Source: Escherichia coli
GTDB lineage: Bacteria; Pseudomonadota; Gammaproteobacteria; Enterobacterales; Enterobacteriaceae
Direction: 5' to 3' (one strand)
Length of the DNA stretch: 64,000 bases
Assembly: GCF_009931435.1 (NCBI RefSeq)
Contig: NZ_CP043414.1
Part shown: positions 7,288 through 28,897 of the stretch, one piece after another
Layout of the letters: each line of letters starts with the position of its first letter
Position numbering within the stretch: position 1 is the stretch's first letter
Program-made: the position numbers and the translations under genes
The notes under the pieces: model-generated
Database searches by the model: none
Told to the model about the DNA's origin: nothing
The model's input: only the letters and a program-made list of their open reading frames with translations

Positions 7288-8004
7288 TTACGCATTACGC
7301 TGCAACAACATCGACTTGATATGGCCGATGGCGCGCGTCGGGTTCAGCCCCTTCGGACATACACTGACGCAGTTCATGATGCTGTGACAGCGGAATACGC
7401 TGAATGCATCGCTCAAACCGTCGAGGCGGCTGTCAGTCTCGGTATCACGGCTATCGATCAGGAAACGATATGCCGCTAACAAGCCTGCCGGGCCGATAAA
7501 CTTATCGGGATTCCACCAGAAAGACGGACAAGAGGTTGAACAACATGCGCAGAGAATACATTCATACAGCCCGTCGATTTTTTCGCGCTGCTCTGGCATC
7601 TGTAAATGCTCACGAGCTGGCGGATTTTGTCCATTATTCAACAGGTAAGGCTTAATTTTCTCATATTGCGCATAGAATTGTCCCATGTCTACCACCAAAT
7701 CGCGGATCACTGGTAAACCTGGCAGCGGGCGAATCACAATCTTCTTGCCCGGCTGGTTGAGTGCCGAAATCGGGGTAATACAGGCCAGACCATTCTTGCC
7801 GTTCATGTTCAGACCGTCGGAACCGCACACACCTTCACGGCAGGAGCGACGGAACGACAGGCTGGGATCTTTCTCTTTCAACTGGATAAGCGCATCCAGC
7901 AGCATCATGTCGCGACCTTCTTCCGCTTCCAGGGTGTAATCCTGCATACGCGGAGCATCATCAACATCCGGGTTATAGCGATAAATTGAAAACTCGAGTC
8001 TCAT
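7288..8004 (-). CDS. sdhB: succinate dehydrogenase iron-sulfur subunit
   Basis: 238-aa ORF starting MRLEFSIYRYNPDVDDAPRMQDYTLEA. Confidence 0.97.
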   Translation of the reverse strand: MRLEFSIYRYNPDVDDAPRMQDYTLEAEEGRDMMLLDALIQLKEKDPSLSFRRSCREGVCGSDGLNMNGKNGLACITPISALNQPGKKIVIRPLPGLPVIRDLVVDMGQFYAQYEKIKPYLLNNGQNPPAREHLQMPEQREKIDGLYECILCACCSTSCPSFWWNPDKFIGPAGLLAAYRFLIDSRDTETDSRLDGLSDAFSVFRCHSIMNCVSVCPKGLNPTRAIGHIKSMLLQRNA

Positions 8005-8019
8005 TTTCCTGTCTCCGCA

Positions 8020-9786
8020 TTAGTAAGTACGAATCTTCGGCGGGAATGCCGGGCGCAGTTTCGGTTCCATGTTGACGCTTCGGCGCGTCATGGATTCCGA
8101 CTCTGGCAGATACAGGGAGTGGCACAGCCAGTTTTCATCATCACGATCCGGGAAGTCGAAGCGGCTATGCGCGCCACGGCTTTCGGTACGGAAGTTGGCA
8201 GAAACAGCCGTTGCATACGCCGTTTCCATCAGGTTATCCAGTTCCAGGCATTCAACGCGCTGGGTGTTGAACTCGCTGGAAGTGTCATCCAGACGGGCAT
8301 TTTTCAAACGCTCGCGGATCACTTTCAACTGCTCAAGCCCTTTTGCCATCGCATCACCTTCACGGAAGACCGAGAAGTTATGCTGCATACATTCTTGCAG
8401 TGCTTTACGAATCGCCACTGGATCTTCACCATTACGGTTGTTGTTCCAGCGATTCAGACGATCCAGAGACGCTTCAACATCAGACTCGCTGGCATCGCGC
8501 AGTGCGCCCTGCTCGGCAATAGACTCTTGCAGATGCAGGCCCGCTGCGCGACCAAAGACCACCAGGTCCAGCAGCGAGTTGCCGCCAAGACGGTTAGCGC
8601 CGTGTACCGATACACAAGCGATTTCACCTACCGCGAACAGCCCCGGAACAACCACATCTTCGCCTTTCTCGTTCACCGTCAGCGCCTGACCGGTCACTTT
8701 GGTCGGAATACCGCCCATCATGTAGTGACAGGTTGGGATAACCGGAATCGGCTCTTTCACCGGATCGACGTGTGCGAAGGTACGGGAGAGTTCAAGGATA
8801 CCCGGCAGACGGGATTCGAGAACTTCTTTACCCAGGTGGTCGAGTTTCAGTTTTGCATGTGGCCCCCATGGACCATCACAGCCGCGACCTTCACGGATTT
8901 CGATCATGATGGAACGCGCCACCACGTCACGGCCCGCCAGATCTTTGGCATTCGGCGCATAACGCTCCATAAAGCGTTCGCCATGTTTGTTCAGCAGATA
9001 ACCGCCTTCACCACGGCAACCTTCGGTGACCAGTACGCCCGCACCTGCTATACCGGTCGGGTGGAACTGCCACATTTCCATATCCTGCACCGGTACACCT
9101 GCACGGATAGCCATGCCGACGCCATCTCCGGTGTTAATGTGCGCGTTGGTGGTGGACTGATAAATACGCCCTGCCCCGCCGGTTGCCAGCACAGTCGCAC
9201 GGGCTTTGAAGTAAACCACTTCACCGGTTTCGATGCACAGTGCGGTACAACCAACTACCGCGCCATCCTGGTTCTTCACCAGATCCAGCGCATACCACTC
9301 GGAGAAAATGGTGGTGTGGTTTTTCAGGTTCTGCTGATAAAGCGTGTGCAACAGTGCGTGACCGGTACGGTCAGCTGCCGCCGCAGTACGTGCCGCTTGC
9401 TCGCCACCGAAGTTTTTCGACTGGCCGCCAAACGGACGTTGATAGATACGACCATCATCAAGGCGCGAGAACGGCAGGCCCATGTGTTCCAGTTCCAGAA
9501 TCGCTTCCGGCCCGGTTTTACACATATATTCAATCGCGTCCTGGTCACCGATATAGTCCGACCCTTTTACGGTGTCGTACATATGCCATTCCCAGTTATC
9601 TTCATGGGTATTACCCAGCGCAACGGTAATGCCGCCTTGCGCAGAAACGGTATGGGAACGGGTCGGGAAGACTTTGGAGAGCAGCGCACAGGTTTGGCCG
9701 CTCTGGGAAATTTGCAGCGCCGCGCGCATACCTGCGCCACCGGCACCAATCACAACTGCATCAAATTCTCTGACTGGCAATTTCAT
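8020..9786 (-). CDS. sdhA: succinate dehydrogenase flavoprotein subunit
   Basis: ORF 8020..9798; start taken at [24 protein letters not shown] (588 aa), FAD-binding GxGxxG motif. Confidence 0.95.
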
Positions 9787-10133
9787 CACACACCCCACAC
9801 CACAACGAATCCATAAATCACGTAAACCACCAGTGCAACGACAATCACCAGTTGCAGCATCAGGCGCAAAGCCAGTGGTTTAACGTAGTCGGTCAACACC
9901 TGCCACATGCCGATCCAGGCATGGATCAAGATAGAAAACAGCGCCAGCAGGGTGAACACTTTGGTGAACGCAGAGGCGAAGAAACCAATCCAGACTTCAT
10001 ATGTCAGCTCGCCAGTGGTAGCGAAAAAACCGACCATATAAATGATGTAAAGCGTCAGGACGATAGCGGTAGCGCGAACGAGGATGAAATCATGTACGCC
10101 ATTGCGTCCTAATGCGGAGGCGTTGCTTACCAT
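9786..10133 (-). CDS. sdhD: succinate dehydrogenase membrane anchor subunit
   Basis: 115-aa hydrophobic [29 protein letters not shown]. Confidence 0.95.
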
Positions 10134-10516
10134 ACGAGGACTCCTGCGAGAAGTGAAAGCACGACAGTAATAACAAAGGAGATTTTGGCGGAGCGTTTAC
10201 CCGCTTCGAATGTTTCTTCCAGATAGCCAAAATCCATCATCATGTGGCGAATACCTACGACGACGTGATACGCCAGAGCGGTAAGGATGCCCCACATGAT
10301 AAATTTGACGAAGAAGCTGCCCATAATCGCGGAAGCTTGCTCGAAACCTTCAGGGGAAGAGAGGCTGGTACCCAGAAGCCACAGCAGGATGCCCACTGCA
10401 ACAAAGGTGATCACACCGGAAACGCGATGGAGAATGGACGCTATCGCCGTGACGGGGAACCGGATGGTCTGTAGGTCCAGATTAACAGGTCTTTGTTTTT
10501 TCACATTTCTTATCAT
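10127..10516 (-). CDS. sdhC: succinate dehydrogenase cytochrome b556 subunit
   Basis: start taken at [20 protein letters not shown] (129 aa) inside ORF 10127..10531. Confidence 0.93.
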
Positions 10517-11224
10517 GAATAACGCCCACATGCTGTTCTTATTATTCCCTGGGGACTACGGGCACAGAGGTTAACTTTCTGTTACCTGGAGACGTCGGGA
10601 TTTCCTTCCTCCGGTCTGCTTGCGGGTCAGACAGCGTCCTTTCTATAACTGCGCGTCATGCAAAACACTGCTTCCAGATGCGAAAACGACACGTTACAAC
10701 GCTGGGTGGCTCGGGATTGCAGGGTGTTCCGGAGACCTGGCGGCAGTATAGGCCGTTCACAAAATCATTACAATTAACCTACATATAGTTTGTCGGGTTT
10801 TATCCCGAACAGTGATCTGGGTCACGATAACAACATTTATTTAATTTTTAATCATCTAATTTGACAATCATTCAACAAAGTTGTTACAAACATCACTAGG
10901 AAAAGCATATAATGCGTAAAAGTTATGAAGTCAGTATTTCACCTAAGATTAACTTATGTAACAGTGTGGAAGTATTGACCAATTCATTCGGGACAGTTAT
11001 TAGTGGTAGACAAGTTTAATAATTCGGATTGCTAAGTACTTGATTCGCCATTTATTCGTCATCAATGGATCCTTTACCTGCAAGCGCCCAGAGCTCTGTA
11101 CCCAGGTTTTCCCCTCTTTCACAGAGCGGCGAGCCAAATAACAAACGGGTAAAGCCAGGTTGATGTGCGAAGGCAAATTTAAGTTCCGGCAGTCTTACGC
11201 AATAAGGCGCTAAGGAGACCTTAA
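10517..11224. promoter_or_regulatory. divergent gltA / sdhCDAB promoter-regulatory intergenic region
   Basis: ~700-bp AT-rich spacer between divergently oriented gltA and sdhC; function from established knowledge, sites not mapped. Confidence 0.6.
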
Positions 11225-12508
11225 ATGGCTGATACAAAAGCAAAACTCACCCTCAACGGGGATACAGCTGTTGAACTGGATGTGCTGAAAGGCACGCTGG
11301 GTCAAGATGTTATTGATATCCGTACTCTCGGTTCAAAAGGTGTGTTCACCTTTGACCCAGGCTTCACTTCAACCGCATCCTGCGAATCTAAAATTACTTT
11401 TATTGATGGTGATGAAGGTATTTTGCTGCACCGCGGTTTCCCGATCGATCAGCTGGCGACCGATTCTAACTACCTGGAAGTTTGTTACATCCTGCTGAAT
11501 GGTGAAAAACCAACTCAGGAACAGTATGACGAATTTAAAACGACGGTGACCCGTCATACCATGATCCACGAGCAGATTACCCGTCTGTTCCATGCTTTCC
11601 GTCGCGACTCGCATCCAATGGCAGTCATGTGTGGTATTACCGGCGCGCTGGCGGCGTTCTATCACGACTCGCTGGATGTTAACAATCCTCGTCATCGTGA
11701 AATTGCCGCGTTCCGCCTGCTGTCAAAAATGCCGACCATGGCCGCGATGTGTTACAAGTATTCCATTGGTCAGCCATTCGTTTACCCGCGCAACGATCTC
11801 TCCTATGCCGGTAACTTCCTGAATATGATGTTCTCCACGCCGTGCGAACCGTATGAAGTTAATCCGATTCTGGAACGCGCGATGGACCGTATTCTGATCC
11901 TGCACGCTGACCATGAACAGAACGCCTCTACCTCCACCGTGCGTACCGCTGGCTCTTCGGGGGCGAACCCGTTTGCCTGTATCGCAGCAGGTATTGCTTC
12001 ACTGTGGGGACCAGCGCACGGTGGTGCTAACGAAGCGGCTCTGAAAATGCTGGAAGAAATCAGCTCCGTTAAACACATTCCGGAATTTGTTCGTCGTGCG
12101 AAAGACAAGAATGACTCTTTCCGCCTGATGGGCTTCGGTCACCGCGTGTACAAAAACTACGACCCGCGCGCCACCGTCATGCGTGAAACCTGCCACGAAG
12201 TCCTGAAAGAGCTGGGCACGAAGGATGACCTGCTGGAAGTGGCTATGGAGCTGGAAAACATCGCGCTGAACGACCCGTACTTTATCGAGAAGAAACTGTA
12301 CCCGAACGTCGATTTCTACTCTGGTATCATCCTGAAAGCGATGGGTATTCCGTCTTCCATGTTCACCGTGATCTTCGCTATGGCACGTACAGTTGGCTGG
12401 ATCGCCCACTGGAGCGAAATGCACAGTGACGGCATGAAGATTGCCCGTCCACGTCAGCTGTATACCGGCTATGAAAAACGCGATTTTAAAAGCGACATCA
12501 AACGTTAA
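11225..12508 (+). CDS. gltA: citrate synthase
   Basis: 427-aa [36 protein letters not shown]. Confidence 0.97.
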
Positions 12509-12537
12509 CTGCTGATTCCTAAGCAGTAAATTCTGTT

Positions 12538-12567
12538 AACCCGCCTTTAAAAGGCGGGTTAATTTTT
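12538..12567 (+). terminator. intrinsic terminator after gltA
   Basis: hairpin aacccgcctttaaaaggcgggtt followed by aattttta. Confidence 0.7.
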
Positions 12568-12900
12568 ATCTACCTAAACACAAAAAAATGTAAAAATAAA
12601 ATTAATTAACCGGCTGACATTAATATTGCAAAATAATAGAATTGTTCATTTTATCGGCAAAATAATAAATTTTAATTAAGGTATCTGCTTTTAGTTACAT
12701 TTATAACCTCATGAAAATGAGGTATATCTCTCTCATTCCCCCCGATAACATTCATTAAATTATTAATTCATCACATCAATTAGTTAACCTTGCATTTAAT
12801 ATAATTAATAATATTTTTAAGTAAAACTAAAAACATTCGACAATCAAATAAGATATTCTGATATCGCTATACTTTTTCTATTTCTGTAAAGGACTCAGTT

Positions 12901-13467
12901 ATGTTTAAAGGACAAAAAACATTGGCCGCATTGGCCGTATCTCTGTTATTCACTGCACCGGTTTATGCAGCTGATGAAGGTTCTGGTGAAATTCACTTTA
13001 AAGGTGAAGTTATAGAAGCACCATGTGAAATACATCATGATGATATTGATAAAGAAATTGAGCTAGGTCAGGTGACCACCAGCCACATTAATCAGTCTCA
13101 TCACAGCGATGCGGTTGCTGTCGACCTGCGTTTAATCAACTGCGACCTGGAAAACTCTAATAACGGTTCCGGTGGTAAGATTTCCAAAGTTGCGGTCACC
13201 TTCGATAGCTCAGCGAAAACTACTGGCGCAGATCCGATACTCAACAATACCAGCACTGGCGAAGCCACCGGTGTCGGCGTGCGTTTAATGAATAAGGATC
13301 AAAGCAATATCATTTTAGGCACTGCTTCTCCGGATATCGACCTCGCACCAACGTCCAGTGAACAAACACTGAACTTCTTTGCCTGGATGGAACAAATTGA
13401 TCAAGCGACACCAGTAACGGCAGGGGCTGTTACAGCGAATGCAACCTACGTACTGGATTATAAATAA
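12901..13467 (+). CDS. ybgD: fimbrial major subunit-like protein (chaperone-usher family)
   Basis: 188-aa ORF with signal peptide MFKGQKTLAALAVSLLFTAPVYA; AT-rich upstream region; position next to gltA. Confidence 0.85.
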   Translation: MFKGQKTLAALAVSLLFTAPVYAADEGSGEIHFKGEVIEAPCEIHHDDIDKEIELGQVTTSHINQSHHSDAVAVDLRLINCDLENSNNGSGGKISKVAVTFDSSAKTTGADPILNNTSTGEATGVGVRLMNKDQSNIILGTASPDIDLAPTSSEQTLNFFAWMEQIDQATPVTAGAVTANATYVLDYK

Positions 13468-13516
13468 GCGTTATTGGGCGGCATCACTGCCGCCTTTCTT
13501 AAAATATTTATCTGGT

Positions 13517-15976
13517 ATGGACACCGTGAATATTTATCGACTCTCTTTTGTATCCTGCCTGGTCATGGCGATGCCTTCCGCCATGGCGGTTGAATTCAAC
13601 CTGAATGTCCTCGACAAATCGATGCGTGAGCGCATTGATATTTCATTATTAAAGGAAAAAGGTGTCATTGCTCCCGGTGAATATTTTGTCAGCATTGCGG
13701 TAAATAATAACCAAATCAGTAATGGGCAAAAAATTAACTGGCAAAAAAAGGGTGACAATACCATTCCGTGCATCAATGATTTATTGGTCGATAAATTTGG
13801 CTTAAAACCTGAAGTCCGTCAGTCGTTACCCCTGATTAATCAGTGCGTCGATTTTAGCTCCCGACCAGAAATGCTCTTCAATTTTGATCAGGCCAGTCAG
13901 CAACTGAATATCACCATCCCACAGGCCTGGCTGGCGTGGCACTCAGATAACTGGACTCCACCCTCCACATGGAAAGAAGGTGTCCCCGGTGTCCTGATGG
14001 ATTACAACTTGTTTGCCAGCAGCTACCGCCCACAGGATGGCAGCAGCAGCACTAATCTTAACGCCTACGGAACAGCCGGAATTAACGCGGGGGCATGGCG
14101 CTTACGCAGTGACTATCAGTTGAATCAAAATGATGGCGATGATAACCATGAGCAGTCAGGCGAAATATCACGTACCTATCTTTTTCGCCCGCTACCGCAA
14201 TTAGGTTCAAAATTAACCCTCGGCGAAACGGATTTTAGTTCCAATATTTTCGACGGTTTTTCTTATACCGGCGCGGCACTGGCGAGTGACGACCGGATGT
14301 TACCGTGGGAACTGCGCGGCTACGCTCCACAAATTAGCGGTATTGCACAAACCAATGCCACCGTCACCGTGAGTCACTCAGGGCGAGTTATTTACCAGAA
14401 AAAAGTCCCGCCAGGCCCGTTTATCATTGATGATCTGAATCAGTCCGTCCAGGGGACGCTGGATGTCAAAGTGACGGAAGAAGATGGTCGGGTGAACAAT
14501 TTCCAGGTTTCGGCAGCATCGACGCCTTTCCTTACGCGCCAGGGGCAGGTTCGCTATAAACTTGCTGCCGGTCAGCCGCGAACATCTATGTCTCATCAAA
14601 CTGAAAATGAAACCTTTTTTAGCAATGAAGTTTCCTGGGGGATGCTGTCAAATACCTCGCTGTACGGCGGCCTGCTGATTTCGGGTGACGACTACCATTC
14701 TGCCGCAATGGGTATCGGGCAAAATATGCTCTGGCTTGGTGCATTGTCGTTTGATGTCACCTGGGCCAGTAGTCAGTTTGATACTCAGCAGGACGAGCGG
14801 GGCTTAAGTTACCGCTTTAATTACAGCAAACAAGTGGATGCCACTAACAGCACGATTTCGCTCGCCGCTTATCGCTTCTCAGATCGTCATTTTCACAGCT
14901 ACGCCAACTATCTGGATCACAAATACAACGACAACGATGCGCAGGACGAAAAACAGACGATCAGCTTATCCGTGGGGCAACCAATTACCCCACTGAACCT
15001 CAATCTGTACGCCAACCTGCTGCATCAAACCTGGTGGAATGCAGACGCCTCCACGACCGCCAACATCACGGCGGGTTTTAATGTTGATATTGGTAACTGG
15101 AGAGATATCTCGATCTCGACGTCATTCAATACAACCCATTACGAAGATAAAGATCGCGACAACCAGATTTACCTGTCGATTTCGCTTCCCTTCGGTAACG
15201 GTGGTCGGGTCGGTTATGACATGCAAAACAGTAGCCACAGCACCACACACCGCATGTCGTGGAACGATACGCTGGATGAACGAAATAGCTGGGGGATGTC
15301 TGCTGGACTACAATCCGACCGTCCGGACAATGGAGCCCAGGTGAGCGGTAACTATCAGCACCTGAGTTCAGCGGGTGAGTGGGATCTTTCTGGTACTTAT
15401 GCTGCCAATGACTACAGTTCTGTTAGCAGCAGCTGGAGTGGTTCTTTCACGGCGACGCAATATGGTGCAGCCTTCCATCGCCGCAGCTCCACCAATGAAC
15501 CACGCCTGATGGTCAGCACCGATGGCGTGGCAGATATTCCGGTTCAGGGCAATCTCGACTACACCAACCATTTTGGCATTGCAGTGGTACCGCTGGTTTC
15601 CAGTTATCAACCTTCCACCGTGGCCGTGAACATGAACGACTTACCCGACGGCGTGACGGTGACAGAAAACGTCATCAAAGAAACGTGGATTGAAGGCGCA
15701 ATAGGTTACAAATCACTGGCATCCCGTTCCGGTAAAGACATTAACGTCATCATTCGCAACGCCAGCGGTCAGTTCCCTCCCCTCGGTGCGGATATCCGTC
15801 AGGATGGCAGCAGCATTAGCGTGGGGATGGTTGGCGAGGAAGGACACGCCTGGTTAAGCGGAGTCGCTGAGAATCAAAAGTTTACCGTGGTCTGGGGTGA
15901 TAGTCAGCGTTGCTCGATCCATCTTCCTGAACATATGGAAGACACCGCAAATCGCCTGATTTTACCTTGTCATTAA
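13517..15976 (+). CDS. ybgQ: fimbrial outer-membrane usher
   Basis: ~819-aa product within ORF 13439..15976; start chosen at MDTVNIYRLSFVSCLVMAMPSAMA (alternative starts possible). Confidence 0.85.
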   Translation: MDTVNIYRLSFVSCLVMAMPSAMAVEFNLNVLDKSMRERIDISLLKEKGVIAPGEYFVSIAVNNNQISNGQKINWQKKGDNTIPCINDLLVDKFGLKPEVRQSLPLINQCVDFSSRPEMLFNFDQASQQLNITIPQAWLAWHSDNWTPPSTWKEGVPGVLMDYNLFASSYRPQDGSSSTNLNAYGTAGINAGAWRLRSDYQLNQNDGDDNHEQSGEISRTYLFRPLPQLGSKLTLGETDFSSNIFDGFSYTGAALASDDRMLPWELRGYAPQISGIAQTNATVTVSHSGRVIYQKKVPPGPFIIDDLNQSVQGTLDVKVTEEDGRVNNFQVSAASTPFLTRQGQVRYKLAAGQPRTSMSHQTENETFFSNEVSWGMLSNTSLYGGLLISGDDYHSAAMGIGQNMLWLGALSFDVTWASSQFDTQQDERGLSYRFNYSKQVDATNSTISLAAYRFSDRHFHSYANYLDHKYNDNDAQDEKQTISLSVGQPITPLNLNLYANLLHQTWWNADASTTANITAGFNVDIGNWRDISISTSFNTTHYEDKDRDNQIYLSISLPFGNGGRVGYDMQNSSHSTTHRMSWNDTLDERNSWGMSAGLQSDRPDNGAQVSGNYQHLSSAGEWDLSGTYAANDYSSVSSSWSGSFTATQYGAAFHRRSSTNEPRLMVSTDGVADIPVQGNLDYTNHFGIAVVPLVSSYQPSTVAVNMNDLPDGVTVTENVIKETWIEGAIGYKSLASRSGKDINVIIRNASGQFPPLGADIRQDGSSISVGMVGEEGHAWLSGVAENQKFTVVWGDSQRCSIHLPEHMEDTANRLILPCH

Positions 15977-15990
15977 TTAAGGAAATGAAA

Positions 15991-16722
15991 ATGACATTTA
16001 TGAAAGGACTTCCCCTTTTGTTGTTGGTTACCAGTCTGTGTAGCCACGCTGCACTACAACCCGATCGCACTCGCATTGTGTTTAACGCTAATGATAAAGC
16101 CACCAGCCTGCGAGTAGATAATCGTAGCGATAAACTCCCCTACCTCGCTTATTCCTGGCTCGAAAATGAAAAAGGGGAGAAAAGCGACGATCTTCTGGTC
16201 GCCCTGCCACCGATACAACGTCTGGAACCGAAAGCAACAACGCAGGTGCGGATAGTCAAGCAAGCCTCGACCGCGAAATTACCGGGCGATCGCGAAACGC
16301 TATTTTTCTACAATATGCGTGAAATTCCTCCCGCCCCGGAAAAAAACAGCGACCATGCCGTTCTGCAAGTCGCCATCCAGAGCCGTATCAAGGTGTTCTG
16401 GCGACCGTCTGCATTACGCAAGAAAGCAGGAGAAAAGGTCGAACTGCAGTTACAGGTCAGCCAGCAGGGCAATCAGCTTAGCTTAAAAAACCCTACTGGC
16501 TATTATCTGACCATCGCGTATCTTGGGCGAAATGAGCAAAGCGTTCTCCCGGGCTTCAAAACTGTGATGATTGCGCCTTTTAGTACAGTAAGCACAACCA
16601 CTGGAAATTATAGTGGCAGCCAGTTTTATCTCGGTTATATGGATGATTATGGCGCATTACGCATGACAACGCTCAACTGTAACGGGCAATGCCGTTTACA
16701 GGCTGTGGAGGCGAAGAAATGA
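15991..16722 (+). CDS. ybgP: fimbrial periplasmic chaperone (PapD-like)
   Basis: ORF 15967..16722; start taken at [20 protein letters not shown]; overlaps usher stop. Confidence 0.85.
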
Positions 16723-17780
16723 GTGCTGGCAAGGGATTGTTGCTCATCATCTGTCTGTTATTTCTACCGTTAAAATCTGCGCTTGCCCTGAACTGTTACT
16801 TTGGTTCATCCGGTGGTTCGGTAGAAAAATCGGAATCTATTCAACCATTTGCTGTACCAGGGAATGCCAAACCCGGCGATAAGATCTGGGAGTCTGACGA
16901 TATTAAAATTCCCGTCTATTGTGACAACAATACCAACGGCAACTTTGAGAGCGAGCATGTCTACGCCTGGGTAAACCCGTACCCGGGAATTCAGGATCGC
17001 TATTATCAACTCGGCGTAACTTACAATGGTGTTGATTATGATGCTAACCAGGGAAAAAGCCGCATCGACACTAACCAGTGCATCGACAGCAAAAACATTA
17101 ATATTTATACCCCTGAGCAGATCATCGCGATGGGATGGCAGAACAAAATTTGCTCTGGTGATCCCAATAATATTCATATGTCGCGTACGTTTCTCGCTCG
17201 CATGCGGTTATACGTCAAGATACGAGAGATACCGCCGCATGATTATCAAAGCACGCTCAGCGATTACATTGTGGTGCAATTTGATGGCGAAGGAAGCGTT
17301 AATGAGGACCCTACCGCCCAAAACCTGAAATATCATATTACCGGTCTGGAAAACATTCGGGTATTGGATTGCAGCGTCAATTTTTCTATTACCCCAGCCA
17401 ACCAGGTCATTGATTTTGGTAAATTTAATGTACTGGATATCCGGCGACACAACATGACAAAAACATTCGGTATTAAAACGACAAAATCACAAAACGATCA
17501 ATGTACCGACGGATTCAAAGTCAGCTCCTCGTTTTATACCGAAGAAACGTTGGTTGAAGAAGATAAAGCATTGCTGATTGGTAATGGTCTGAAGCTACGT
17601 TTACTGGATGAAAACGCCTCGCCCTATACCTTCAACAAATACAGCGAATATGCCGACTTCACCAGTGACATGCTGATCTACGAAAAAACCTATACGGCTG
17701 AACTTTCGTCTATTCCCGGCACTCCCATTGAGGCTGGCTCCTTCGATACCGTGGTGCTTTTTAAGATTAACTATAACTAA
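16719..17780 (+). CDS. ybgO: fimbrial adhesin-like tip protein
   Basis: ORF 16689..17780; start taken at [23 protein letters not shown] (353 aa); last gene of the chaperone-usher operon. Confidence 0.75.
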
Positions 17781-17930
17781 TTTCCCATGATGCCCTTTGC
17801 AACCGAAAGGGCATCTCTTTCAGAAAATTGCTGATTTTCCCCTTTTCCTTGATTGCTGTTATTTTTTCCTGGCCCGGCTTTCTTTATGCTGTATCGATAC
17901 ACCAAAGAGAAAATAATGAGGAAGCGAAGG

Positions 17931-18977
17931 ATGCCAGTTTTGCAGTGGGGAATGTTATGTGTGCTTTCACTTCTCCTTTCTATTGGCTTCCTCGCGGTAC
18001 ATCTTCCGGCGGCACTATTACTTGGGCCAATGATCGCCGGAATCATCTTTAGTATGCGCGGAATTACTCTGCAACTTCCCCGATCCGCTTTTCTCGCCGC
18101 CCAAGCCATTCTTGGTTGCATGATTGCGCAAAACCTCACTGGTTCGATTCTCACCACGCTAGCCGTTAACTGGCCGATTGTGCTAGCCATTTTACTCGTG
18201 ACGCTGCTTTCCAGTGCCATCGTGGGCTGGTTACTGGTGCGCTATAGCTCACTGCCTGGAAATACCGGTGCCTGGGGTTCTTCGCCAGGCGGCGCGGCTG
18301 CGATGGTTGCTATGGCACAGGATTACGGCGCAGATATTCGTCTGGTGGCGTTTATGCAATACCTACGAGTGCTGTTCGTCGCGGGGGCGGCGGTACTGGT
18401 TACGCGGATGATGTTGGGTGATAACGCTGAAGCGGTTAACCAGCAGATCGTCTGGTTCCCGCCAATGAGCATTAATCTCCTGCTTACGATTTTGCTCGCG
18501 GTCGTTGCCGGTACGGCGGGATGCTTGCTACGTCTTCCTTCCGGCACGATGCTCATCCCGATGCTGGCAGGCGCGCTGCTCCAGTCTGGTGAGTACATAA
18601 CCATCGAACTACCGGAATGGCTTCTGGCGATAGCCTATATGGCAATTGGCTGGCGGATTGGTCTTGGTTTCGATAAACAAATATTACTGCGAGCATTGCG
18701 TCCACTGCCACAAATCCTGCTGTCGATTTTTGCTCTGCTGGCTATTTGTGCGGGTATGGCGTGGGGGCTGACCCGGTTTATGCATATTGATTTTATGACT
18801 GCCTACCTCGCCACCAGTCCCGGCGGGCTTGATACCGTGGCGGTCATCGCCGCAGGGAGCAATGCCGATATGGCGCTTATTATGGCGATGCAAACCCTAC
18901 GCCTGTTCAGTATTTTGCTGACGGGGCCAGCCATTGCGCGGTTTATTTCAACCTATGCGCCGAAGCGGTCGGCCTAG
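17931..18977 (+). CDS. abrB: AbrB-family membrane protein (putative regulator/transporter)
   Basis: ORF 17853..18977; start taken at [23 protein letters not shown] (348 aa), polytopic hydrophobic. Confidence 0.85.
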
Positions 18978-19765
18978 TGCTGGCAGCCTGGACACCAGTA
19001 AAACGGGCGCGAGGACAACGTGGTTTTCTCAATGATGCTGCCACAACGTTCGCACGGTTCGCCATCACGATGAAAAACCTTAAAGCGAAACAGCGCCCCA
19101 TGATGTTTATTCTCATCCACCTGCCCCCGCGTAGCGTAAGAAAGTCGAGGAATCTCCAGTAACGCGTGTGCGAGTGCATCCAGTTGCGCCGCATTGAGAT
19201 CTTTCGCTTTATGATTGCCGGTTAACCCCACCTGCCAGAGGATCTCCACCCGCAAATAATTGCCAAGCCCAGCCAGAAACGCCTGATCGAGTAGTAATCC
19301 AGCAAACTGACGGTTACGAAAGCGCGGCGACAATAACCGTTCTTTCACCATTTCCGGCGTCAGATTCGGGTCGAGTACATCGGGGCCAACGCGTTGTAAA
19401 AACGGATGCGTGGTCAGTTGTTCCGGAGTCAACATCTCAATATCCGAGGCGCTATAAAGTAGAATGGTTTTGTCGACAGTTTGCAGTTTTACCCGCAATA
19501 CTCGCGTGGTCTGCGGCTCTTCGCCGGTATCAACCACGCGCCAGACGCCGTAAAGCTGATTATGGCTGTAGAGCGTTAACCCGTTGGAAAAATGAGTTAA
19601 CAACGCCTTACCTCGCGTTTCCACATGGGTAACGTGTTGACCGATAAGTTGTGATTGATAAGGTTTTAACTGCGGGAAGGCAAACCAGACATCAGTTAGA
19701 GGTTTGCCTTTGATCGCCGCCTCCAGGTTATCCGCTGCACGGCGGATCTCCGGGCCTTCAGGCAT
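18974..19765 (-). CDS. nei: endonuclease VIII (DNA glycosylase/AP lyase)
   Basis: 263-aa [26 protein letters not shown] with C-terminal zinc finger [25 protein letters not shown]. Confidence 0.95.
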
Positions 19766-19800
19766 GGTGATATCCTTTTTTCATTCTTTATTAAGCGGGG

Positions 19801-20535
19801 TTATGCTGCGACAACAATCCCCTTTTCGGCAAATGTAGAGCGTAGTCGGCGGGCGAACGCCAGTGCGTGTTCTCCATCGCCATGCAGGCAGACCGTTTGC
19901 GCCGTGACCGTTGCCCATTCGCCGTTGATACTTTTGACTCTGCCGTGTTGCACCATCTCCAGCGTCTGCGCCAGCGCCTGTTCTTCGTTTTCAATCAACG
20001 CGCCAGGCTGACTTCGCGGTACCAGTGAGCCGTCAGCCTGATATCCGCGATCGGCAAATACTTCCTCGCGCGTTGTCAGGCCATATTGCTTGCCTGCACG
20101 AATCAGCTCGCTTCCCGCCAGCCCAACGAGAATCAACGCCGGATCGCAAGCGTAAACTGCTCTGGCAATGGCGTCTGCCAGTTGTGCCTCTTTCGCCGCC
20201 TGGTTGTATAACATGCCGTGCGGTTTGACGTGACGCATCACGCCGCCTTGCGCGCGAGCAATAGCGGCCAGCGCACCAATTTGATACAGCGTTTGGGCGT
20301 AAACGGTTTCCGGCGGCAATTGCATGGCGCTACGGCCAAAATGTTCCCTGTCCGGAAAGCTCGGGTGAGCGCCAATGGCGACACCATTTTGTATGGCGTC
20401 ACGCACACAAGCCTGCATGGTTTGTGCATCGCCTGCATGAAATCCACAGGCAATATTGGCAGAGGAAACCAGCGTTAATAGCTCTGCGTCGCTGGCACAG
20501 CCTTCGCCCAGATCGGCGTTCAGGTCAATTTTCAT
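19801..20535 (-). CDS. pxpA: 5-oxoprolinase subunit A (LamB/YcsF family)
   Basis: 244-aa [39 protein letters not shown]. Confidence 0.9.
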
Positions 20536-21457
20536 TGTGCAGCCGCCACGCTAATTGTTCGAAATAACGTTGCTGATCTTGCCGCGCTTTCAGTGCCTCT
20601 TCCAGTGAACACTGGACAAAATGAATCGGCTGACCGAGCGGAATTTGCGCCAGATGGTACATATCAGCCTCAATGATACAGGCAATACGCGGATAACCAC
20701 CGGTGGTCTGTGCGTCGTTCATCAATACAATCGGCTGGCCGTTATGCGGCACCTGCACCACGCCCGGCAACAAACCATGAGATAACAGTTCGCGATCGGT
20801 GGTGCGTTTTAAAATTTGCCCCTGTAAGCGATAGCCCATACGGTTACTTTGCGGACTAAGCTGCCACGGCGAACGCCAGAATGCATCCTGCGAGGCGCGA
20901 TCGAACTCATGATATTCCGGCCCCGGCAAGGCGCGAATGCGGTTGCCCCACAGCAGCTGTTTAACGCCCTGCGCTTCCATAAAATCACGCTTCGATTTAC
21001 CCATCGGGAGTCGGTCACCATCCTTCAGTAAACGGCCTTCCAGCCCACCAATCCCCACTTTGAGATCGGTACTGCATGACCCCATTACCGGCGGAACATC
21101 AATACCACCCGCGACCGCCAGATAACTGCGCATCCCGTGCTGCGGGCGTTTAAGCGTTAAACGCTGGCCTGCTTTCATCGGCAATCGCCAGCCAGTCCAG
21201 ACGGCATTATCATCCAGCCGCGCTTCGCAACCTGCCCCCGTCAGGGCAAACCAACCATCAGTTTCGAACTCTACCGTTAACTGACCGAGCGTTATCTCCA
21301 GCGCGGGGGCATTGGCGTCATTACCCACCAGCAGGTTAGCAATGCGTAACGCAGGCATATCCAGTGCGCCGCAGTGGCTGATACCCGACTGGCGAAAACC
21401 GTGACGACCGCCATCCTGCACAGTGGTATACATGCCCGCACGAATAATCTTCAGCAT
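20525..21457 (-). CDS. pxpC: 5-oxoprolinase subunit C
   Basis: 310-aa ORF overlapping pxpA start and pxpB stop. Confidence 0.9.
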
Positions 21458-22107
21458 ACTCCCTCCTTCTGCGGTACAAAGCGCACGCTGTCTCCCGGAC
21501 GTAATAAGATGGGTTCGTCACGCGCCGGATCAAACAGGCTGAGTGAGGTATGACCAATCAACTGCCAGCCGCCCGGCGTTGCCAGCGGATAAACACCGGT
21601 CTGCGGCCCGCCGATCCCGACAGAACCTGCCGGAACGAGCAAGCGCGGTTCAGCGCGCCGTGGCGTGTGTAGTTGTTCCGGCAAACTCCCGAGATACGGG
21701 AAGCCCGGTTGAAAACCTAAAAACCAGACCACGTATTCCACAGAGGAGTGCAATTCAACAACCTGTTTTTCGCTCAATCCACAATGCGCCGCGACCACCG
21801 CCAAATCCGGTCCGCCTGCGCCACCGTAAACTACCGGAATTTCAATAAAACGAGACTCCGGCTCCAGCGCCTCACTCTCCTCCCACCAGCGTTGCAAACG
21901 CTCTATGGCATCCAGCGCCAGCGACTCAGGATTACGCAAAATCACCGTGATATTGTTCATGCCGGGAATGGCTTCAACCACATTCGGCATATCCACCAGA
22001 CGCTGCGCCAGTCGCCAGATCCGTTTCTGGCTAGCCAGCGTCACCGGCGGTTCCAGTTCCAGCACTACCGCCGTTTCACCTATCAGATAACAACGCGCTC
22101 GTTGCAC
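21451..22107 (-). CDS. pxpB: 5-oxoprolinase subunit B
   Basis: 218-aa ORF; operon arrangement ybgI-pxpB-pxpC-pxpA. Confidence 0.9.
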
Positions 22108-24673: not shown

Positions 24674-26086
24674 ACCTTTCTTCGCTTCTTCATACGCTGC
24701 CAGCGTTCGCAGCCTTGCCTCTTTGTGGTCAACTATCGGTTGCGGATAATCCAGCTTCACACCTGCTTTCTCTGCCCACTTCCACGGTTCATGCACCGCT
24801 TTCCCTGGTACATCGCGCAACTCTGGTAGCCACCGGCGAATAAACTCGCCCTCGCGGTCAAATTTCTCGCCCTGGGTTGTCGGGTTGAAAATACGAAAAT
24901 ACGGCGCTGCATCAGTACCCGTAGAAGCCGCCCACTGCCAGCCACCGTTATTGGCTGCCAAATCACCATCAATCAGCTGCGACATGAAATACCGCTCGCC
25001 TTCGCGCCAGTCGATCAACAAATCTTTCACCAAAAAGCTTGCTGTAATCATCCGTAGCCGATTATGCATCCAGCCAGTGCTGTTAAGCTGACGCATGGCC
25101 GCATCAACAATCGGGTATCCCGTTTTGCCTTCCTGCCAGGCCTTTAAATGCGCGGGATTACTTTGCCACTGTACGCGATCGGTCCAGGCAATAAAGGGGC
25201 GATGCTTACACAGTGACGGGTGATACGTCATCAAATGACGGTAGAACTCGCGCCAGATCAGCTCATTAAGCCAGACGCTACCAGCCCCGCCATCCAGCGC
25301 ATGCGGCTGTTCCGCCAACAGGCGATGCAGACACTGGCGAGGCGATAACCTACCCGTTGCAAGGCTTGCAGACAAACGGCTGGTGCCTTCCACTGCCGGA
25401 AAATCACGCTGCTGATCGTACTGACTCGCACCGTTCTGGCAAAACTGGCGTAATTGCGCAATCGCCGCTTTTTCTTCCACCGGGAAATGCGCGGTATCGA
25501 ATGACTGACGAGGGTAATTCAGCGTAATAGATGGCGCGGGATCTAATGATCCGCTACTCCGAACTTTTGGCGCAGCGACGCACTCCGGCATCCCTTCCCG
25601 CAGCCGTTTCAGCCAGGCGTTTTTAAATGGCGTAAAGACTTTGTACATCTCATGATTGCCAGTCATCACCGCCCCCGGCGGCAGGATCACGCTGTCATCA
25701 AATCCTTCACACACCACGTTACGCAGCGTTCTCTCAACCTGCACATCCCGCGCCCGCTCATTCACCTCATACTGATAGTTATAAAACAGATGGGTAACAC
25801 GGTTTTCCGCGCACACCTGTTTAACTATTTCGACGCTGGCGGCAAAGTCATCCACTTCATGAAACAGCAAAGGAATGCCTTTTTCCGCCAGCGCGATTTG
25901 TAGCCCGTTCAGTTGTGCATTGATAAATTCAGCCTGACGCGGCGACATATTATGCGCCGCCCACTGGCGTGGTGTAGCGATATACAACGCCAGCACGCGT
26001 GCAGACGAATTGCGGCAGGCGGCAGCAAGCGCGAGATTGTCGTGCAGACGTAAATCCTGGCGAAACCAGACCAGATGGGTAGTCAT
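24668..26086 (-). CDS. phr: deoxyribodipyrimidine photolyase
   Basis: 472-aa ORF MTTHLVWFRQDLRLHDNLALAAACRNSSARVLALYIATPRQW. Confidence 0.95.
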   Translation of the reverse strand: MTTHLVWFRQDLRLHDNLALAAACRNSSARVLALYIATPRQWAAHNMSPRQAEFINAQLNGLQIALAEKGIPLLFHEVDDFAASVEIVKQVCAENRVTHLFYNYQYEVNERARDVQVERTLRNVVCEGFDDSVILPPGAVMTGNHEMYKVFTPFKNAWLKRLREGMPECVAAPKVRSSGSLDPAPSITLNYPRQSFDTAHFPVEEKAAIAQLRQFCQNGASQYDQQRDFPAVEGTSRLSASLATGRLSPRQCLHRLLAEQPHALDGGAGSVWLNELIWREFYRHLMTYHPSLCKHRPFIAWTDRVQWQSNPAHLKAWQEGKTGYPIVDAAMRQLNSTGWMHNRLRMITASFLVKDLLIDWREGERYFMSQLIDGDLAANNGGWQWAASTGTDAAPYFRIFNPTTQGEKFDREGEFIRRWLPELRDVPGKAVHEPWKWAEKAGVKLDYPQPIVDHKEARLRTLAAYEEAKKGA

Positions 26087-26592
26087 AAAACTCCTGCATG
26101 GCGCAAGTTAATCACCCGCGGCCAAAGTTCGAAATAACGCTGCTCTGAAAGCCAGGCGTCAGGATAAAGCGCCATATAGTGTTTGATACGCATCAGCGGC
26201 GCAAGAAGCGGTTGCTCGCCACGGCGATAACTGTCGATAAGCGCCGCCAGCTGCTGGCGTTCTGTGGAATCAATATGTGGGCGAAAATAACCCTGAACGT
26301 GCATCAAAACGTTGGTGTGATCGCGCGGGTTGGCGGGATGAGAAAGCAAAACAATTACGCGTTGGCGGTACTGGTTGTAATAGTCACCCAGATTTTGCCA
26401 CTGGTGAATATCAGCCACAAACGGGCCAAGTTTGCGGTATTCCGGCTGGGAATGAGCCAGAAAGACGAGTTTATAGCGGCTGTGATAATCGAGAAGCGCC
26501 CCGCGCGTTAAGCCTCGCTCTTTAAGACGGTGTAACTCATGCAAAGCAAAAATGCGGATAAGGGTGCTGTCATCAAAAAGTTGTTGATTCAT
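26083..26592 (-). CDS. ybgA: DUF1722-family protein cotranscribed with phr
   Basis: 169-aa ORF MNQQLFDDSTLIRIFALHELHRLKERG, stop overlaps phr start. Confidence 0.9.
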   Translation of the reverse strand: MNQQLFDDSTLIRIFALHELHRLKERGLTRGALLDYHSRYKLVFLAHSQPEYRKLGPFVADIHQWQNLGDYYNQYRQRVIVLLSHPANPRDHTNVLMHVQGYFRPHIDSTERQQLAALIDSYRRGEQPLLAPLMRIKHYMALYPDAWLSEQRYFELWPRVINLRHAGVL

Positions 26593-26676
26593 TACTACTC
26601 CTGGGCGGTTTACAGGAGTAAGTGTAGACGGCGGTACTGAAAAAACGAAACGAATAAATGATAACAGTAAAAAAAT

Positions 26677-27126
26677 TCAATTATTCATAATAAATTTCAT
26701 GGTGGCAAGAAATAGTTTCTTTTCTTCATCACTCATGGCAGCAACGTTTAACATGTTGTCATCAAAATTATTGATGATATTTTTTAATTTCAGTAACTGC
26801 AAAGGAGAAAAATAGTCACTCCCGATGAGATTACTCAATACCAGCAATAGCTCCCCATCATATAAATAGCCCACCATAAGATTAATCTCTATCATCTCAA
26901 TTGCTTTTTGTACAGCAAGCGCCGGTAAGATATTCTGACGAAGCATTTTGGCAATATCATTTTCATCCAGTTCATCGGGTGTTTTATCTAATAAAGAATT
27001 ATACCAGTTTATTAAACCACTTTTGAAAGCGAACGAATCATATTGCAGGTGATAAATCTGTTTTAGGGTTTCTTTATTTTTCAATTTATAGTGCCTTTGT
27101 TTGCTATAATTTTTCTGAAATAACAT
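26677..27126 (-). CDS. hypothetical protein, 149 aa, AT-rich, predicted helical; immunity-protein-like by context
   Basis: ORF with ATG overlapping the stop of the upstream gene (TGATG); strongly AT-rich codon usage unlike flanking core genes. Confidence 0.6.
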   Translation of the reverse strand: MLFQKNYSKQRHYKLKNKETLKQIYHLQYDSFAFKSGLINWYNSLLDKTPDELDENDIAKMLRQNILPALAVQKAIEMIEINLMVGYLYDGELLLVLSNLIGSDYFSPLQLLKLKNIINNFDDNMLNVAAMSDEEKKLFLATMKFIMNN

Positions 27127-27593
27127 CAGCGAGTTTGCTCAGGTGCAGGGATGACCGAAATTGTCATGTATTTTTTCAGTCTGGCTTCTCGTTTCACACC
27201 TTTCGGATCTGAACCAAAAGGAAGCGTCAAGCATGGTGAGTCAACGGTTTGGATTGTCCAGAGAGAATCACCAATGAATCTGAAATTGATGCTATCCGCT
27301 GTAACGGATAATCCCTCAAAACTTCCCGTCGCATACTCATTACCCAAACGTACGGTCTCTTTAACTCCATCATTAACATCGATAAGGACAATTGTCAGTG
27401 ATTCCTCAAAAATAACGTCATCCGTCAGAAAAAGGATATAACGCTGGTCATTAACCTGAATTGCCGCTTCCAGTATTTGCCCTGGTACAATAATACCTGT
27501 GTTATTGCCATTGAGCACAACGTCAGACTGAGCCTGAGATAAATCAGTCGCTTTGTGAACCTTGACCAACGATATCGAATTAACCTGTTGCAT
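27126..27593 (-). CDS. hypothetical protein, 155 aa (start at MQQVNSISLVKVHKATD; the 186-aa track ORF is probably over-extended)
   Basis: ATG at 27593 two nt downstream of the stop of the glycine-zipper ORF; first 31 codons of the track ORF overlap that ORF in another frame. Confidence 0.6.
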   Translation of the reverse strand: MQQVNSISLVKVHKATDLSQAQSDVVLNGNNTGIIVPGQILEAAIQVNDQRYILFLTDDVIFEESLTIVLIDVNDGVKETVRLGNEYATGSFEGLSVTADSINFRFIGDSLWTIQTVDSPCLTLPFGSDPKGVKREARLKKYMTISVIPAPEQTR

Positions 27594-27595
27594 AA

Positions 27596-27736
27596 TCAAT
27601 TCCACAAGCGCCCCATTTCCCATGCGGCAAGTGCACCGCCGACAAAGCCGCCAATAAGTACGCAAACAGGTGCACCTGGACCACACACCAATCCTGCCAT
27701 CGCGCCGCCTGCGACAGCTCCGGCAATAATATTCAT
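27596..27736 (-). CDS. small glycine-zipper membrane peptide, 46 aa (MNIIAGAVAGGAMAGLVCGPGAPVCVLIGGFVGGALAAWEMGRLWN); candidate small toxin or C-terminal remnant of a polymorphic toxin
   Basis: translated by hand from the minus strand; repeated GxxxG/AxxxG motifs, two hydrophobic segments; weak Shine-Dalgarno; open frame continues 35 codons upstream to a TAG at 27842-27844 without a start codon. Confidence 0.4.
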   Translation of the reverse strand: MNIIAGAVAGGAMAGLVCGPGAPVCVLIGGFVGGALAAWEMGRLWN

Positions 27737-27919
27737 CCGGGTACGACTGCCAGTGGTTTTAACAGATTTGCGCTCACCGTTACGTATCCTGCCACCACTC
27801 AGGTTGCAGACGCGGCAGTCACAGCCTTGACGGTGTTGAAACTAAAGTTCAGGTGATAGTCTGATGTTCATAGTTTGAGCATTATCCCCTGACAGAATCA
27901 AATCAAGCAGTGTCAATGA

Positions 27920-28177: not shown

Positions 28178-28259
28178 ATCATTCAGTTAAATTTCAGTAG
28201 TAAATCGTCTATCAAAAAAAGATGAAATTAACATTCATAAATTTATTACAATATGAAAA

Positions 28260-28872: not shown

Positions 28873-28897
28873 TTTCAATGTTTTCAAAACTCAGCAA

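Follow-up and report, generated by a model that had tools for sequence, protein, structure and literature searches.

An intact Ybg fimbrial operon of the chaperone-usher type in Escherichia coli, present as a rare allele behind an AT-rich, probably H-NS-silenced leader

Overview

Positions 12568-17780 of the window, the 64-kb stretch of DNA that was analysed, hold an intact copy of the previously described Escherichia coli operon for Ybg chaperone-usher fimbriae, present here as a rare allele. For E. coli K-12, publications already describe the operon, the fact that it is cryptic, and the binding of H-NS to the spacer in front of it. We read the locus as an intact Ybg operon that would assemble a fibre, that lies behind a leader silenced by H-NS, and that forms an old allele cassette open to replacement, and we put the probability of this reading at roughly 85%.

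Identity of the locus

The genes ybgD, ybgQ, ybgP, and ybgO are all on the plus strand downstream of gltA (11225-12508), and the operon lies between gltA and abrB/nei, which is its usual chromosomal site. A match to the Ybg locus was found in 4,756 of 5,426 E. coli genomes, with identical neighbours. Ybg type is assigned by usher phylogeny and locus position (Wurpel 2013). The position between gltA and abrB/nei agrees with this type, and YbgQ is 94-96% identical in amino acid sequence to the K-12-type and L003-type ushers and 83% identical to the O145 type. The gene names, order, roles, and place beside gltA given in an earlier note on this DNA were confirmed by the open reading frames, Pfam matches, and RefSeq homologues, and its end coordinate, 17780, is the stop codon of ybgO. 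Uniform GC content across the leader and missing usher and chaperone domains had been named beforehand as observations that would speak against that note; the GC content was found to be non-uniform and the domains are present.

The gltA gene is followed by an intrinsic terminator (12535-12563, plus strand), which was identified by a terminator scan and also as a perfect 13-nt inverted repeat, and which has a 13-bp GC-rich stem before a T-run. All alleles retain the stem core CCCGCC/GGCGGG, and the terminator forms the left boundary of the variable cassette. A search for known RNA families between 12300 and 13100 gave only sub-threshold chance matches on this terminator.

Genes and proteins of the operon

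The first gene, ybgD (12901-13467, plus strand), encodes the major pilin subunit of 188 aa and matches PF00419 (Fimbrial) with an E value of 2e-29. Its ATG is preceded at a distance of 7 nt by the Shine-Dalgarno sequence AGGA (12890-12893, plus strand), seen in the sequence, and the AAGGA block at this site is kept in all alleles. YbgD has the signal peptide, the donor-strand N-terminal extension, and the fold of a pilin, and it matches FimA and PapA in a comparison with the PDB. In a comparison of the alleles, the mature protein is invariant at 22/22 of residues 24-45 and at only 64/115 of residues 46-160.

A GC-rich hairpin with a T-rich tail (13476-13501, plus strand; 8-bp stem at 13476-13495) separates ybgD from ybgQ. 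A comparable hairpin follows the pilin gene in all 31 of the Ybg-like loci checked, and the sequence of its stem differs between genera. From this conservation we infer that the hairpin is likely a partial terminator or a stabiliser of the mRNA 3' end, and it would probably increase pilin transcript relative to usher transcript.

The gene ybgQ (13517-15976, plus strand) encodes a PapC-like outer-membrane usher of 819 aa, and ybgP (15991-16722, plus strand) encodes a periplasmic PapD-like chaperone of 243 aa. The start of ybgQ and the coordinates of ybgP were taken from RefSeq homologues, and the ybgQ ATG at 13517 is in frame. YbgQ has the three domains of an usher, PapC_N (PF13954), Usher (PF00577, E 2e-187), and PapC_C (PF13953), and YbgP has the two domains of a chaperone, PapD_N (PF00345, E 3e-34) and PapD_C (PF02753, E 2e-13). 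YbgQ scored 530 bits against PapC and 273 bits against FimD, and with the NCBIfam models it scored 633 bits for StdB and 278 bits for FimD. Judged by these bit scores rather than by a tree, YbgQ belongs to the Pap-like (pi) usher clade, nearer to PapC/StdB than to FimD/LpfC. The NCBIfam models nearest to YbgP are SteC, StfD, and StdC.

The stop codon of ybgP and the start of ybgO overlap by 4 nt. The gene ybgO (16719-17780, plus strand) encodes a two-domain tip adhesin of 353 aa with a signal peptide (residues 1-23), a receptor-binding domain (residues ~24-217, nt 16788-17369), and a pilin domain (residues ~218-353). The match to PF00419 is weak and confined to the C-terminal third, where it spans residues 228-363 in the translation of the longer ORF. 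The two-domain assignment comes from PDB entries 9RX0 and 9RWW, which are structures of the YbgO receptor-binding domain and match residues 24-217/222 with an E value of 1e-130, and from an AlphaFold model (pLDDT 88) that is structurally most similar to full-length FimH, LpfD, PapG, CupB6, and CsuE. In a Foldseek search of the PDB (to April 2026) the 9RW-series entries and 9RX0 were not listed, and all whole-chain matches had a low TM score, owing to the two-domain geometry of YbgO. No publication describing 9RX0, 9RWW, 9RWU, and 9RWE was found in the literature searched. In agreement with the earlier note, no receptor of YbgO was found in that literature; crystal structures of the receptor-binding domain have now been deposited.

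By analogy with the protein families, YbgD and YbgO would be exported via Sec and capped in the periplasm by the PapD-like YbgP, and the PapC-like YbgQ would polymerise the subunits through donor-strand exchange. The resulting fibre would have a YbgD shaft with the two-domain YbgO adhesin at its tip. In Pap-type systems an adaptor usually joins the adhesin to the rod. The Ybg operon contains no adaptor, terminator, or regulator genes, and because an adaptor gene is absent the exact arrangement of tip and shaft is tentative.

The AT-rich leader

The operon is preceded by an AT-rich leader (12564-12900, plus strand) that is presumed to be an H-NS nucleation region or 'promoter island', based on its GC content, its density of promoter-like sites, and its K-12 counterpart. 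The GC content of positions 12568-12900 (333 bp) is 0.240. Across the whole window the mean is 0.510, with an sd of 0.061 for segments of 333 bp. A value this low occurs at only 0.08% of positions, and the minimum, 0.228, is at 12558-12890. The leader has 13 runs of A or T with a length of 4 or more, and eight of its tracts of 8 nt or longer consist of A and T only, with a maximum of 27 nt, which agrees with the earlier description of an extremely AT-rich leader with long A/T tracts. TpA steps have a frequency of 0.134 in the leader and 0.046 across the window. Additionally, seven promoter-like sites were found in the 337-bp leader, or 20.8/kb compared with 1.1/kb window-wide, which is the maximum of any such window. 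Extreme A+T content and dense overlapping promoter-like sites, each an extreme for the window, are among the features of a promoter island. The low GC content is held in all alleles (0.26-0.33) although their leaders are just 45-71% identical, and of 57 related loci with a GC content of 0.45-0.63, ~55 have an AT-rich upstream region (GC 0.23-0.40).

One predicted sigma-70 promoter-like site, TAAACA-16-TAAAAT (12575-12602, plus strand; promoter scan), is kept as a block in three of the four allele classes. In K-12, genomic SELEX identified an RNA polymerase site with the same hexamers and spacing in the ybgD/gltA spacer, flagged HNS (PMC3946193). The matching site here lies ~300 nt 5' of the ybgD ATG and is a candidate promoter only. 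The K-12 spacer was bound by H-NS in all ChIP studies and is one of 78 'promoter islands' (PMC3661553), and the cryptic chaperone-usher fimbriae of E. coli are described as H-NS repressed (Korea 2010, as cited in PMC3559732). Two sites in the leader resemble the H-NS high-affinity motif TCGATAAATT, each with 2 mismatches, a weak and uninformative likeness.

H-NS probably silences the present allele as well. This is an extrapolation from composition and one conserved promoter block because the leader is only 71% identical to that of K-12, where H-NS binding was recorded. The H-NS-silenced leader of the earlier note is thus upheld as far as its composition resembles an H-NS target and the K-12 spacer is published as H-NS-bound; occupancy of the present leader is by analogy. 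As reported for K-12, the ~340-bp leader with its many promoter-like sites may bind both H-NS and RNA polymerase, and H-NS filaments may hold the operon silent under laboratory conditions.

Allele classes, selection, and cassette exchange

The ybgD gene falls into discrete classes: it is at least 99% identical to the present one in 18 genomes, ~90% identical in ~2,800, and 71-75% identical in 1,338; another 1,241 genomes are without it. Among the 5,426 complete E. coli genomes, only 18 have an allele that reaches 95% identity to the present one. Compared with three other allele classes, the leader is 71/70/45% identical in nucleotides, while amino acid identity is 80/96/73% for YbgD, 87/95/79% for YbgP, 94/95/85% for YbgO, and 95/96/87% for the receptor-binding domain of YbgO. 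YbgD is the most variable protein of the operon. The adhesin gene had been expected to be the most variable part, an expectation that failed: YbgO is 85-95% identical, and no part is better conserved than its receptor-binding domain. Variability was highest in the leader, with 45-71% nt identity, and in YbgD, with 73-96% aa identity.

Between pairs of alleles dN/dS is 0.03-0.13 for all four genes, and dS is 0.3-1.9, compared with 0.07-0.14 for gltA. The four ybg genes are under long-term purifying selection, since dN/dS is this low with dS up to 1.9. Identity to the other alleles is ~97% up to the gltA stop, drops at precisely that point to 43-69%, and is restored beyond ybgO. Between E. coli O145 and Escherichia sp. 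E1V33 the ybg alleles are 98.5-99.3% identical, compared with 91.9% for gltA and 94.0% for nei. The whole unit, including the leader, behaves as a replaceable cassette between conserved flanks with discrete, very old allele classes. The cassette is often deleted; deletion or IS1 scars were seen, and ~23% of complete E. coli genomes are without ybgD.

Within the cassette, the shaft and the leader have diversified and the receptor-binding domain of the adhesin has remained conserved. We suggest tentatively, as a proposal slightly short of an even chance, that ybg is a long-lived cassette polymorphism of Escherichia with discrete allele classes whose synonymous divergence is saturated, that it predates the split of the species' flanking genes, has been swapped whole across species including the leader, and has been lost repeatedly, with YbgD, the chaperone, and the leader diversifying around a near-constant receptor-binding domain. 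If true, this would suggest that immunity or phages drive the diversification of a fibre with a single conserved receptor. No prior description of such a polymorphism for Ybg was found in the literature searched.

Alternative explanations

The operon could instead be a decaying relic, with 'cryptic' meaning non-functional and the leader being unconstrained DNA that drifts to A+T. The frequent loss of ybgD and its scars fit this view, as do the fast evolution of the leader (the fastest-evolving part of the locus), the ybgO pseudogene in Shigella flexneri 2457T, and the statement of Wurpel et al. (PMC3559732) that the Ybg locus is not intact in many strains. All four open reading frames are full length here, however, and the dN/dS values at such high dS speak against decay, as do the invariant donor-strand segment of YbgD and the recurrence of low GC upstream of the operon in distant genera. 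Over-expressed K-12 Ybg fimbriae are also reported to raise adherence (Korea 2010, as cited in PMC6033998), and we consider a relic very improbable. Recent acquisition of a foreign island by the present strain is a little less probable again. The GC3 of ybgD (0.40) and the GC of ybgO (0.44) are low compared with the GC3 of gltA (0.58), three predictors called the K-12 ybg locus foreign (PMC3661553), and the divergence boundary at the gltA stop is sharp. Against this, Superficieibacter electus and all of the sampled Escherichia species carry the operon at this site, a tRNA is lacking within 8000-22000 and an integrase among the annotated neighbours, and the usher and chaperone genes have a GC content of 0.49-0.50, near the window mean of 0.51. 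No true plasmid copy was found, the next best true plasmid match being 43%. Carriage on a plasmid was rejected, as the high-identity 'plasmid' matches are records of 0.28-4.9 Mb, evidently chromosome filed as plasmid. The earlier term 'horizontally acquired' is to be used with reserve: the hallmarks of an island (tRNA, integrase, plasmid) are absent and the position is conserved, but the alleles are exchanged between lineages as a cassette. Judged from the sequences, what moves horizontally is the ybg allele between conserved flanks, and the data fit an old resident locus with alleles swapped by homologous recombination.

The leader might also act in phase variation instead of being a plain silencer; it would then be an invertible promoter like fimS or a switch that works by Dam/Lrp methylation as in Pap. 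Phase variation is common among chaperone-usher operons, and an 18-nt inverted repeat, 89% complementary (12591-12608/12802-12819), surrounds 193 nt of the leader. This repeat is made up of A/T only, and 9 of 200 dinucleotide shuffles gave one as good or better. The K-12, L003, and O145 alleles do not conserve it. The scan of the leader for the invertible-switch repeats proposed earlier thus gave none above chance and none conserved. A domain search and the annotated neighbours gave no recombinase gene within or beside the ybg locus, and a fimS-type switch was rejected on these grounds. A Pap-type switch was rejected as well, since the leaders of five alleles have no GATC sites and the leader has no papI/papB-like ORF; its only small ORFs are three of 24-28 aa, and none is annotated in four RefSeq loci. 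A switch of either type is the least probable of these alternatives, and an intact operon behind a silenced leader is the reading that we retain.

Significance

The value as a discovery is small, as the operon was already known from K-12. The divergent, discrete allele classes matter for adhesin typing because reads mapped to K-12, or a GWAS based on it, will wrongly score them as dense 'variants'; a high variant density in ybgP has been recorded (PMC12547504). The conserved receptor-binding domain of YbgO, for which structures are deposited, is a better target for receptor or anti-adhesion work than the variable shaft.

Comparison with known systems

The closest system is the K-12 Ybg fimbriae, described as a 'core-associated' type by Wurpel et al. 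(2013) and as cryptic by Korea et al. (2010). The two have flanks, gene order, and domains in common, and in both the spacer is AT-rich and carries TAAACA-16-TAAAAT and an intercistronic hairpin is present. The K-12 operon belongs to another allele class, with nucleotide identities of 71% in the leader, 74% in ybgD, 91% in ybgQ, 85% in ybgP, and 89% in ybgO. The promoter islands of K-12 (Panyukov and Ozoline 2013) resemble the present leader in extreme A+T content, in dense overlapping promoter-like sites, and in preceding a poorly expressed gene cluster, a likeness read here from the sequence.

The Yqi, or ExPEC adhesin I, operon (ygiL-yqiG-yqiH-yqiI) is a paralogue at a different site, between zupT and ribB. 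It has the same order of pilin, PapC-type usher, chaperone, and two-domain adhesin and also has an AT-rich upstream region, but the adhesins are only 34-38% identical and the ushers 41-43%. For Yqi there is a report of glycan ligands (PMC12442223), and none was found for Ybg in the literature searched.

P pili (pap) share with Ybg a PapC-like usher, a PapD-family chaperone, a pilin that matches PapA, and a two-domain adhesin like PapG. Ybg differs in that it is without the PapK/E/F adaptors, the PapH terminator, the PapI/PapB regulators, and the GATC pairs for Dam/Lrp switching, and it is not on a pathogenicity island. Compared with type 1 fimbriae, Ybg is without the invertible element, a FimB/FimE recombinase, and the FimF/FimG adaptors, and its usher is nearer to PapC than to FimD. 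FimH of type 1 fimbriae is nonetheless the best full-length structural match of the predicted YbgO model, and both systems combine a chaperone-usher fibre and a two-domain tip adhesin with a variable major pilin and a conserved adhesin.

Gene content of the operon

The gene gltA (11225-12508) is the upstream neighbour of the operon and is followed at its 3' end by a strong terminator hairpin (12535-12563), with a gap of 337 bp between this terminator and the first fimbrial open reading frame. Four genes follow on the + strand: ybgD, encoding the fimbrial pilin (12901-13467; Pfam E 2e-29), ybgQ, encoding the usher (13517-15976; PapC_N, Usher and PapC_C, E 2e-187), ybgP, encoding a PapD-type chaperone (15991-16722; two of two Pfam domains), and ybgO (16719-17780), for which Pfam gave a weak pilin match in the C-terminal third only. 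The operon region was found by Megablast in 4,756 of 5,426 complete E. coli genomes, where these genes are annotated as ybgD/ybgQ/ybgP/ybgO and have constant neighbours, sdhCDAB and gltA on one side and abrB, nei and pxpA on the other. The window operon is of the Ybg fimbrial type, and the subunit, usher, chaperone and adhesin-like genes named in the earlier note were confirmed by this annotation and by Pfam, which finds both the usher and the chaperone domains. Wurpel et al. classed the Ybg type as core-associated and frequently not intact, with carriers that are mainly commensal and diarrhoeagenic strains (PMC3559732). A 147-aa open reading frame on the - strand (17777-18220), antisense to the end of ybgO and the start of abrB, is probably spurious, since Pfam gave no match and RefSeq homologues leave it unannotated.

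A GC-rich hairpin (13476-13495) with a T-rich tail (to 13501) lies between ybgD and ybgQ. A comparable hairpin and tail follow the pilin gene in 31 of the 31 Ybg-like loci examined (L001-L031, from other genomes), and the stem core does not vary within Escherichia and has an entirely different sequence in other genera. In other chaperone-usher operons, hairpins after pilin genes serve in part-termination or message stabilisation. By analogy, the ybgD-ybgQ hairpin probably either partly terminates transcripts or stabilises the pilin message, which would result in more pilin than usher.

The AT-rich leader and its probable silencing

The region upstream of ybgD is as extremely AT-rich as the earlier note described, with a GC content of 0.240 at 12568-12900 versus an average of 0.510 across the window (sd 0.061, 333-bp windows), and GC is not uniform over this leader, which holds the lowest-GC stretch of all 64 kb. 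It contains seven sigma-70-like hexamer pairs (20.8/kb versus 1.1/kb overall, the maximum among 337-bp windows) and TpA steps at three times the window frequency. Among the 78 'promoter islands' published for K-12 is the ybgD/gltA spacer of 413 bp, to which H-NS bound in every ChIP data set compared and which carries a flag for association with foreign genes (PMC3661553). Additionally, genomic SELEX determined an RpoD site in this spacer, TAAACA-16-TAAAAT, marked HNS (PMC3946193); the same hexamers and spacing recur in the window at 12575-12602, within one of the few leader blocks kept between alleles. Leader GC is 0.26-0.33 in four allele classes whose mutual identity is only 45-71%, and nearly all of 57 related loci, in genera with a local GC of 0.45-0.63, have a low-GC region (0.23-0.40) ahead of their pilin gene. 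Because low GC is kept across these alleles and loci, the comparison supports a composition that is functional rather than accidental.

Silencing by H-NS was weighed against a switch in the leader, invertible or of the methylation type. The scan for an invertible switch that the earlier note suggested was run, and the best inverted repeat in the leader is 18 nt of A/T only, with arms 193 nt apart; 9 of 200 shuffles gave a repeat as good, and the other alleles compared do not conserve it. No recombinase gene was found near the operon, no small regulator reading frame in the leader, no GATC sites in five leader alleles, and nothing exceeding noise in an Rfam search around the leader. Since these tests were negative, the best reading is a promoter-dense, AT-rich leader silenced by H-NS. 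The cryptic state of Ybg and the binding of H-NS and RNA polymerase in the spacer have been reported for the K-12 allele, for which the silencing proposed in the earlier note is thus documented; by extension, the window allele would be kept silent by H-NS on its leader. Over-expression of BolA is reported to induce ybgD of the K-12 allele. A separate paper, citing Korea 2010, states that adherence increases when that allele is expressed.

Other AT-rich stretches occur in the window. A second very AT-rich block (26600-29400; GC minimum 0.246 at 28356-28688) lies between ybgA/phrB and kdpA; the annotated products in matching E. coli records are a 'contact-dependent growth inhibition system immunity protein' and hypothetical proteins. 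Since at least 80% of 25500-30500 is present in only 170 of 5,426 genomes, this block resembles a variable rhs/CDI orphan-immunity islet. Further low-GC stretches (0.29-0.33) are found at 10744-11076, the sdhC-gltA divergent promoter region, and at 37138-37470 and 49992-50324.

Variation among alleles

The window genome belongs to a somewhat divergent E. coli lineage, its gltA being 97-98.9% identical to that of all E. coli; in a distant control stretch of 6 kb, identity is ~96-97%. At the gltA stop codon, identity to representative alleles drops abruptly from ~97% to 43-69%; it is 65-95% in the operon and recovers just past ybgO. Compared with the K-12, L003 and O145 types, three other Ybg allele classes, the leader is 71%, 70% and 45% identical in nucleotides, and amino acid identities are 80%, 96% and 73% for YbgD, 87%, 95% and 79% for YbgP, 94%, 96% and 83% for YbgQ, and 94%, 95% and 85% for YbgO (95%, 96% and 87% for its N-terminal domain). 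The expectation of an adhesin more variable than all other parts therefore fails for Ybg: YbgO is 85-95% identical, whereas YbgD is 73-96% and the leader 45-71% identical, and it is the shaft subunit and the leader that differ most. The alleles do not differ in the donor-strand segment of YbgD (residues 24-45) but do in its central part. The ybgD gene falls into discrete identity classes, at least 99% identical to the window (18 genomes), ~90% (~2,800 genomes) and 71-75% (1,338 genomes), with none between 95% and 99%, and 1,241 genomes lack it. The window carries a rare allele. The reading frames are intact, and dN/dS of 0.03-0.13 in all four genes shows purifying selection, so the operon is selectively maintained rather than decaying. 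Between classes dS is 0.3-1.9 versus 0.07-0.14 for gltA. The diversity of the shaft may have a selective cause.

The flanks are asymmetric, abrB-nei-pxpA (17931-20535) being 92-96% and sdhC-gltA (9500-12508) 97-99% identical to typical E. coli, and identity in the final 400 nt of gltA falls to 93-95%. Recombination tracts, or hitch-hiking beside a variable cassette, may be the cause.

Exchange and loss of the locus

A scan that took one genome from each species found Ybg-like four-gene units across Enterobacterales. The operon is bordered by gltA and nei in each Escherichia lineage with captured flanks and in Superficieibacter electus, and lies at other sites in Enterobacter, Citrobacter and further genera. 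In E. albertii (L009 1-4186) and a second lineage (L007 1-4183), the operon is immediately preceded by a metabolic cluster with genes for an SDR, a Zn-dependent alcohol dehydrogenase, an RraA-like aldolase and a GntR/FCD regulator, and gltA was not found in the ~4 kb captured on that side.

The cassette has definite boundaries and has been exchanged between lineages. All four genes of the E. coli O145/O157-type allele are 98.5-99.3% identical to those of Escherichia sp. E1V33, versus 91.9% for gltA and 94.0% for nei in the same pair. Recombination in conserved flanks therefore moves whole cassettes among Escherichia lineages. No tRNA, integrase or genuine plasmid copy of the locus was found. 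The horizontal acquisition claimed in the earlier note thus fits alleles exchanged between lineages better than it fits an island; given the conserved gltA-nei position, an old resident locus with recombinational allele replacement is the more accurate description.

Loss of the operon is common, and two independent routes were identified. E. coli MINF_1A has a clean deletion (L063 4987-5382) that leaves the final ~396 nt of ybgO adjoining gltA, and in E. coli VG888-46E9 (L062 7154-8188) an IS1 separates a 90-nt 5' remnant of ybgD from a 195-nt 3' remnant of ybgO.

Comparison with known fimbrial systems

The observation in the earlier note is correct but ordinary, as both the operon and this kind of silenced leader are known. 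What is mildly new is how deeply the allele classes diverge and that they are exchanged like cassettes, and a shaft and leader that vary versus a conserved YbgO receptor-binding domain. The YbgO signal peptide ends at ALA|LN, and residues 24-217 match PDB entries 9RX0 and 9RWW ('Fimbrial protein'; E 1e-130, ~96% identity), whose deposited sequence is that of the common L003-type allele; 9RWU/9RWV and 9RWE match more weakly. No paper citing this series of entries was found, Ybg is absent from a 2025 review of the fimbrial lectins of E. coli and, in agreement with the earlier note, our literature search returned no published YbgO receptor. The AlphaFold model of YbgO (pLDDT 88) has two beta-rich domains, and its best whole-chain matches are the two-domain tip adhesins FimH, LpfD, PapG, CupB6 and CsuE; YbgO would likewise be located at the fibre tip. 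The usher YbgQ is Pap-like (bit scores of 530 for PapC versus 273 for FimD), and the closest NCBIfam models for the usher and chaperone are those of Salmonella Std, Ste and Stf. Within Escherichia the closest paralogue is the Yqi operon (ygiL-yqiGHI, between zupT and ribB), which shares its gene order with Ybg and encodes an adhesin 34-38% identical to that of Ybg.
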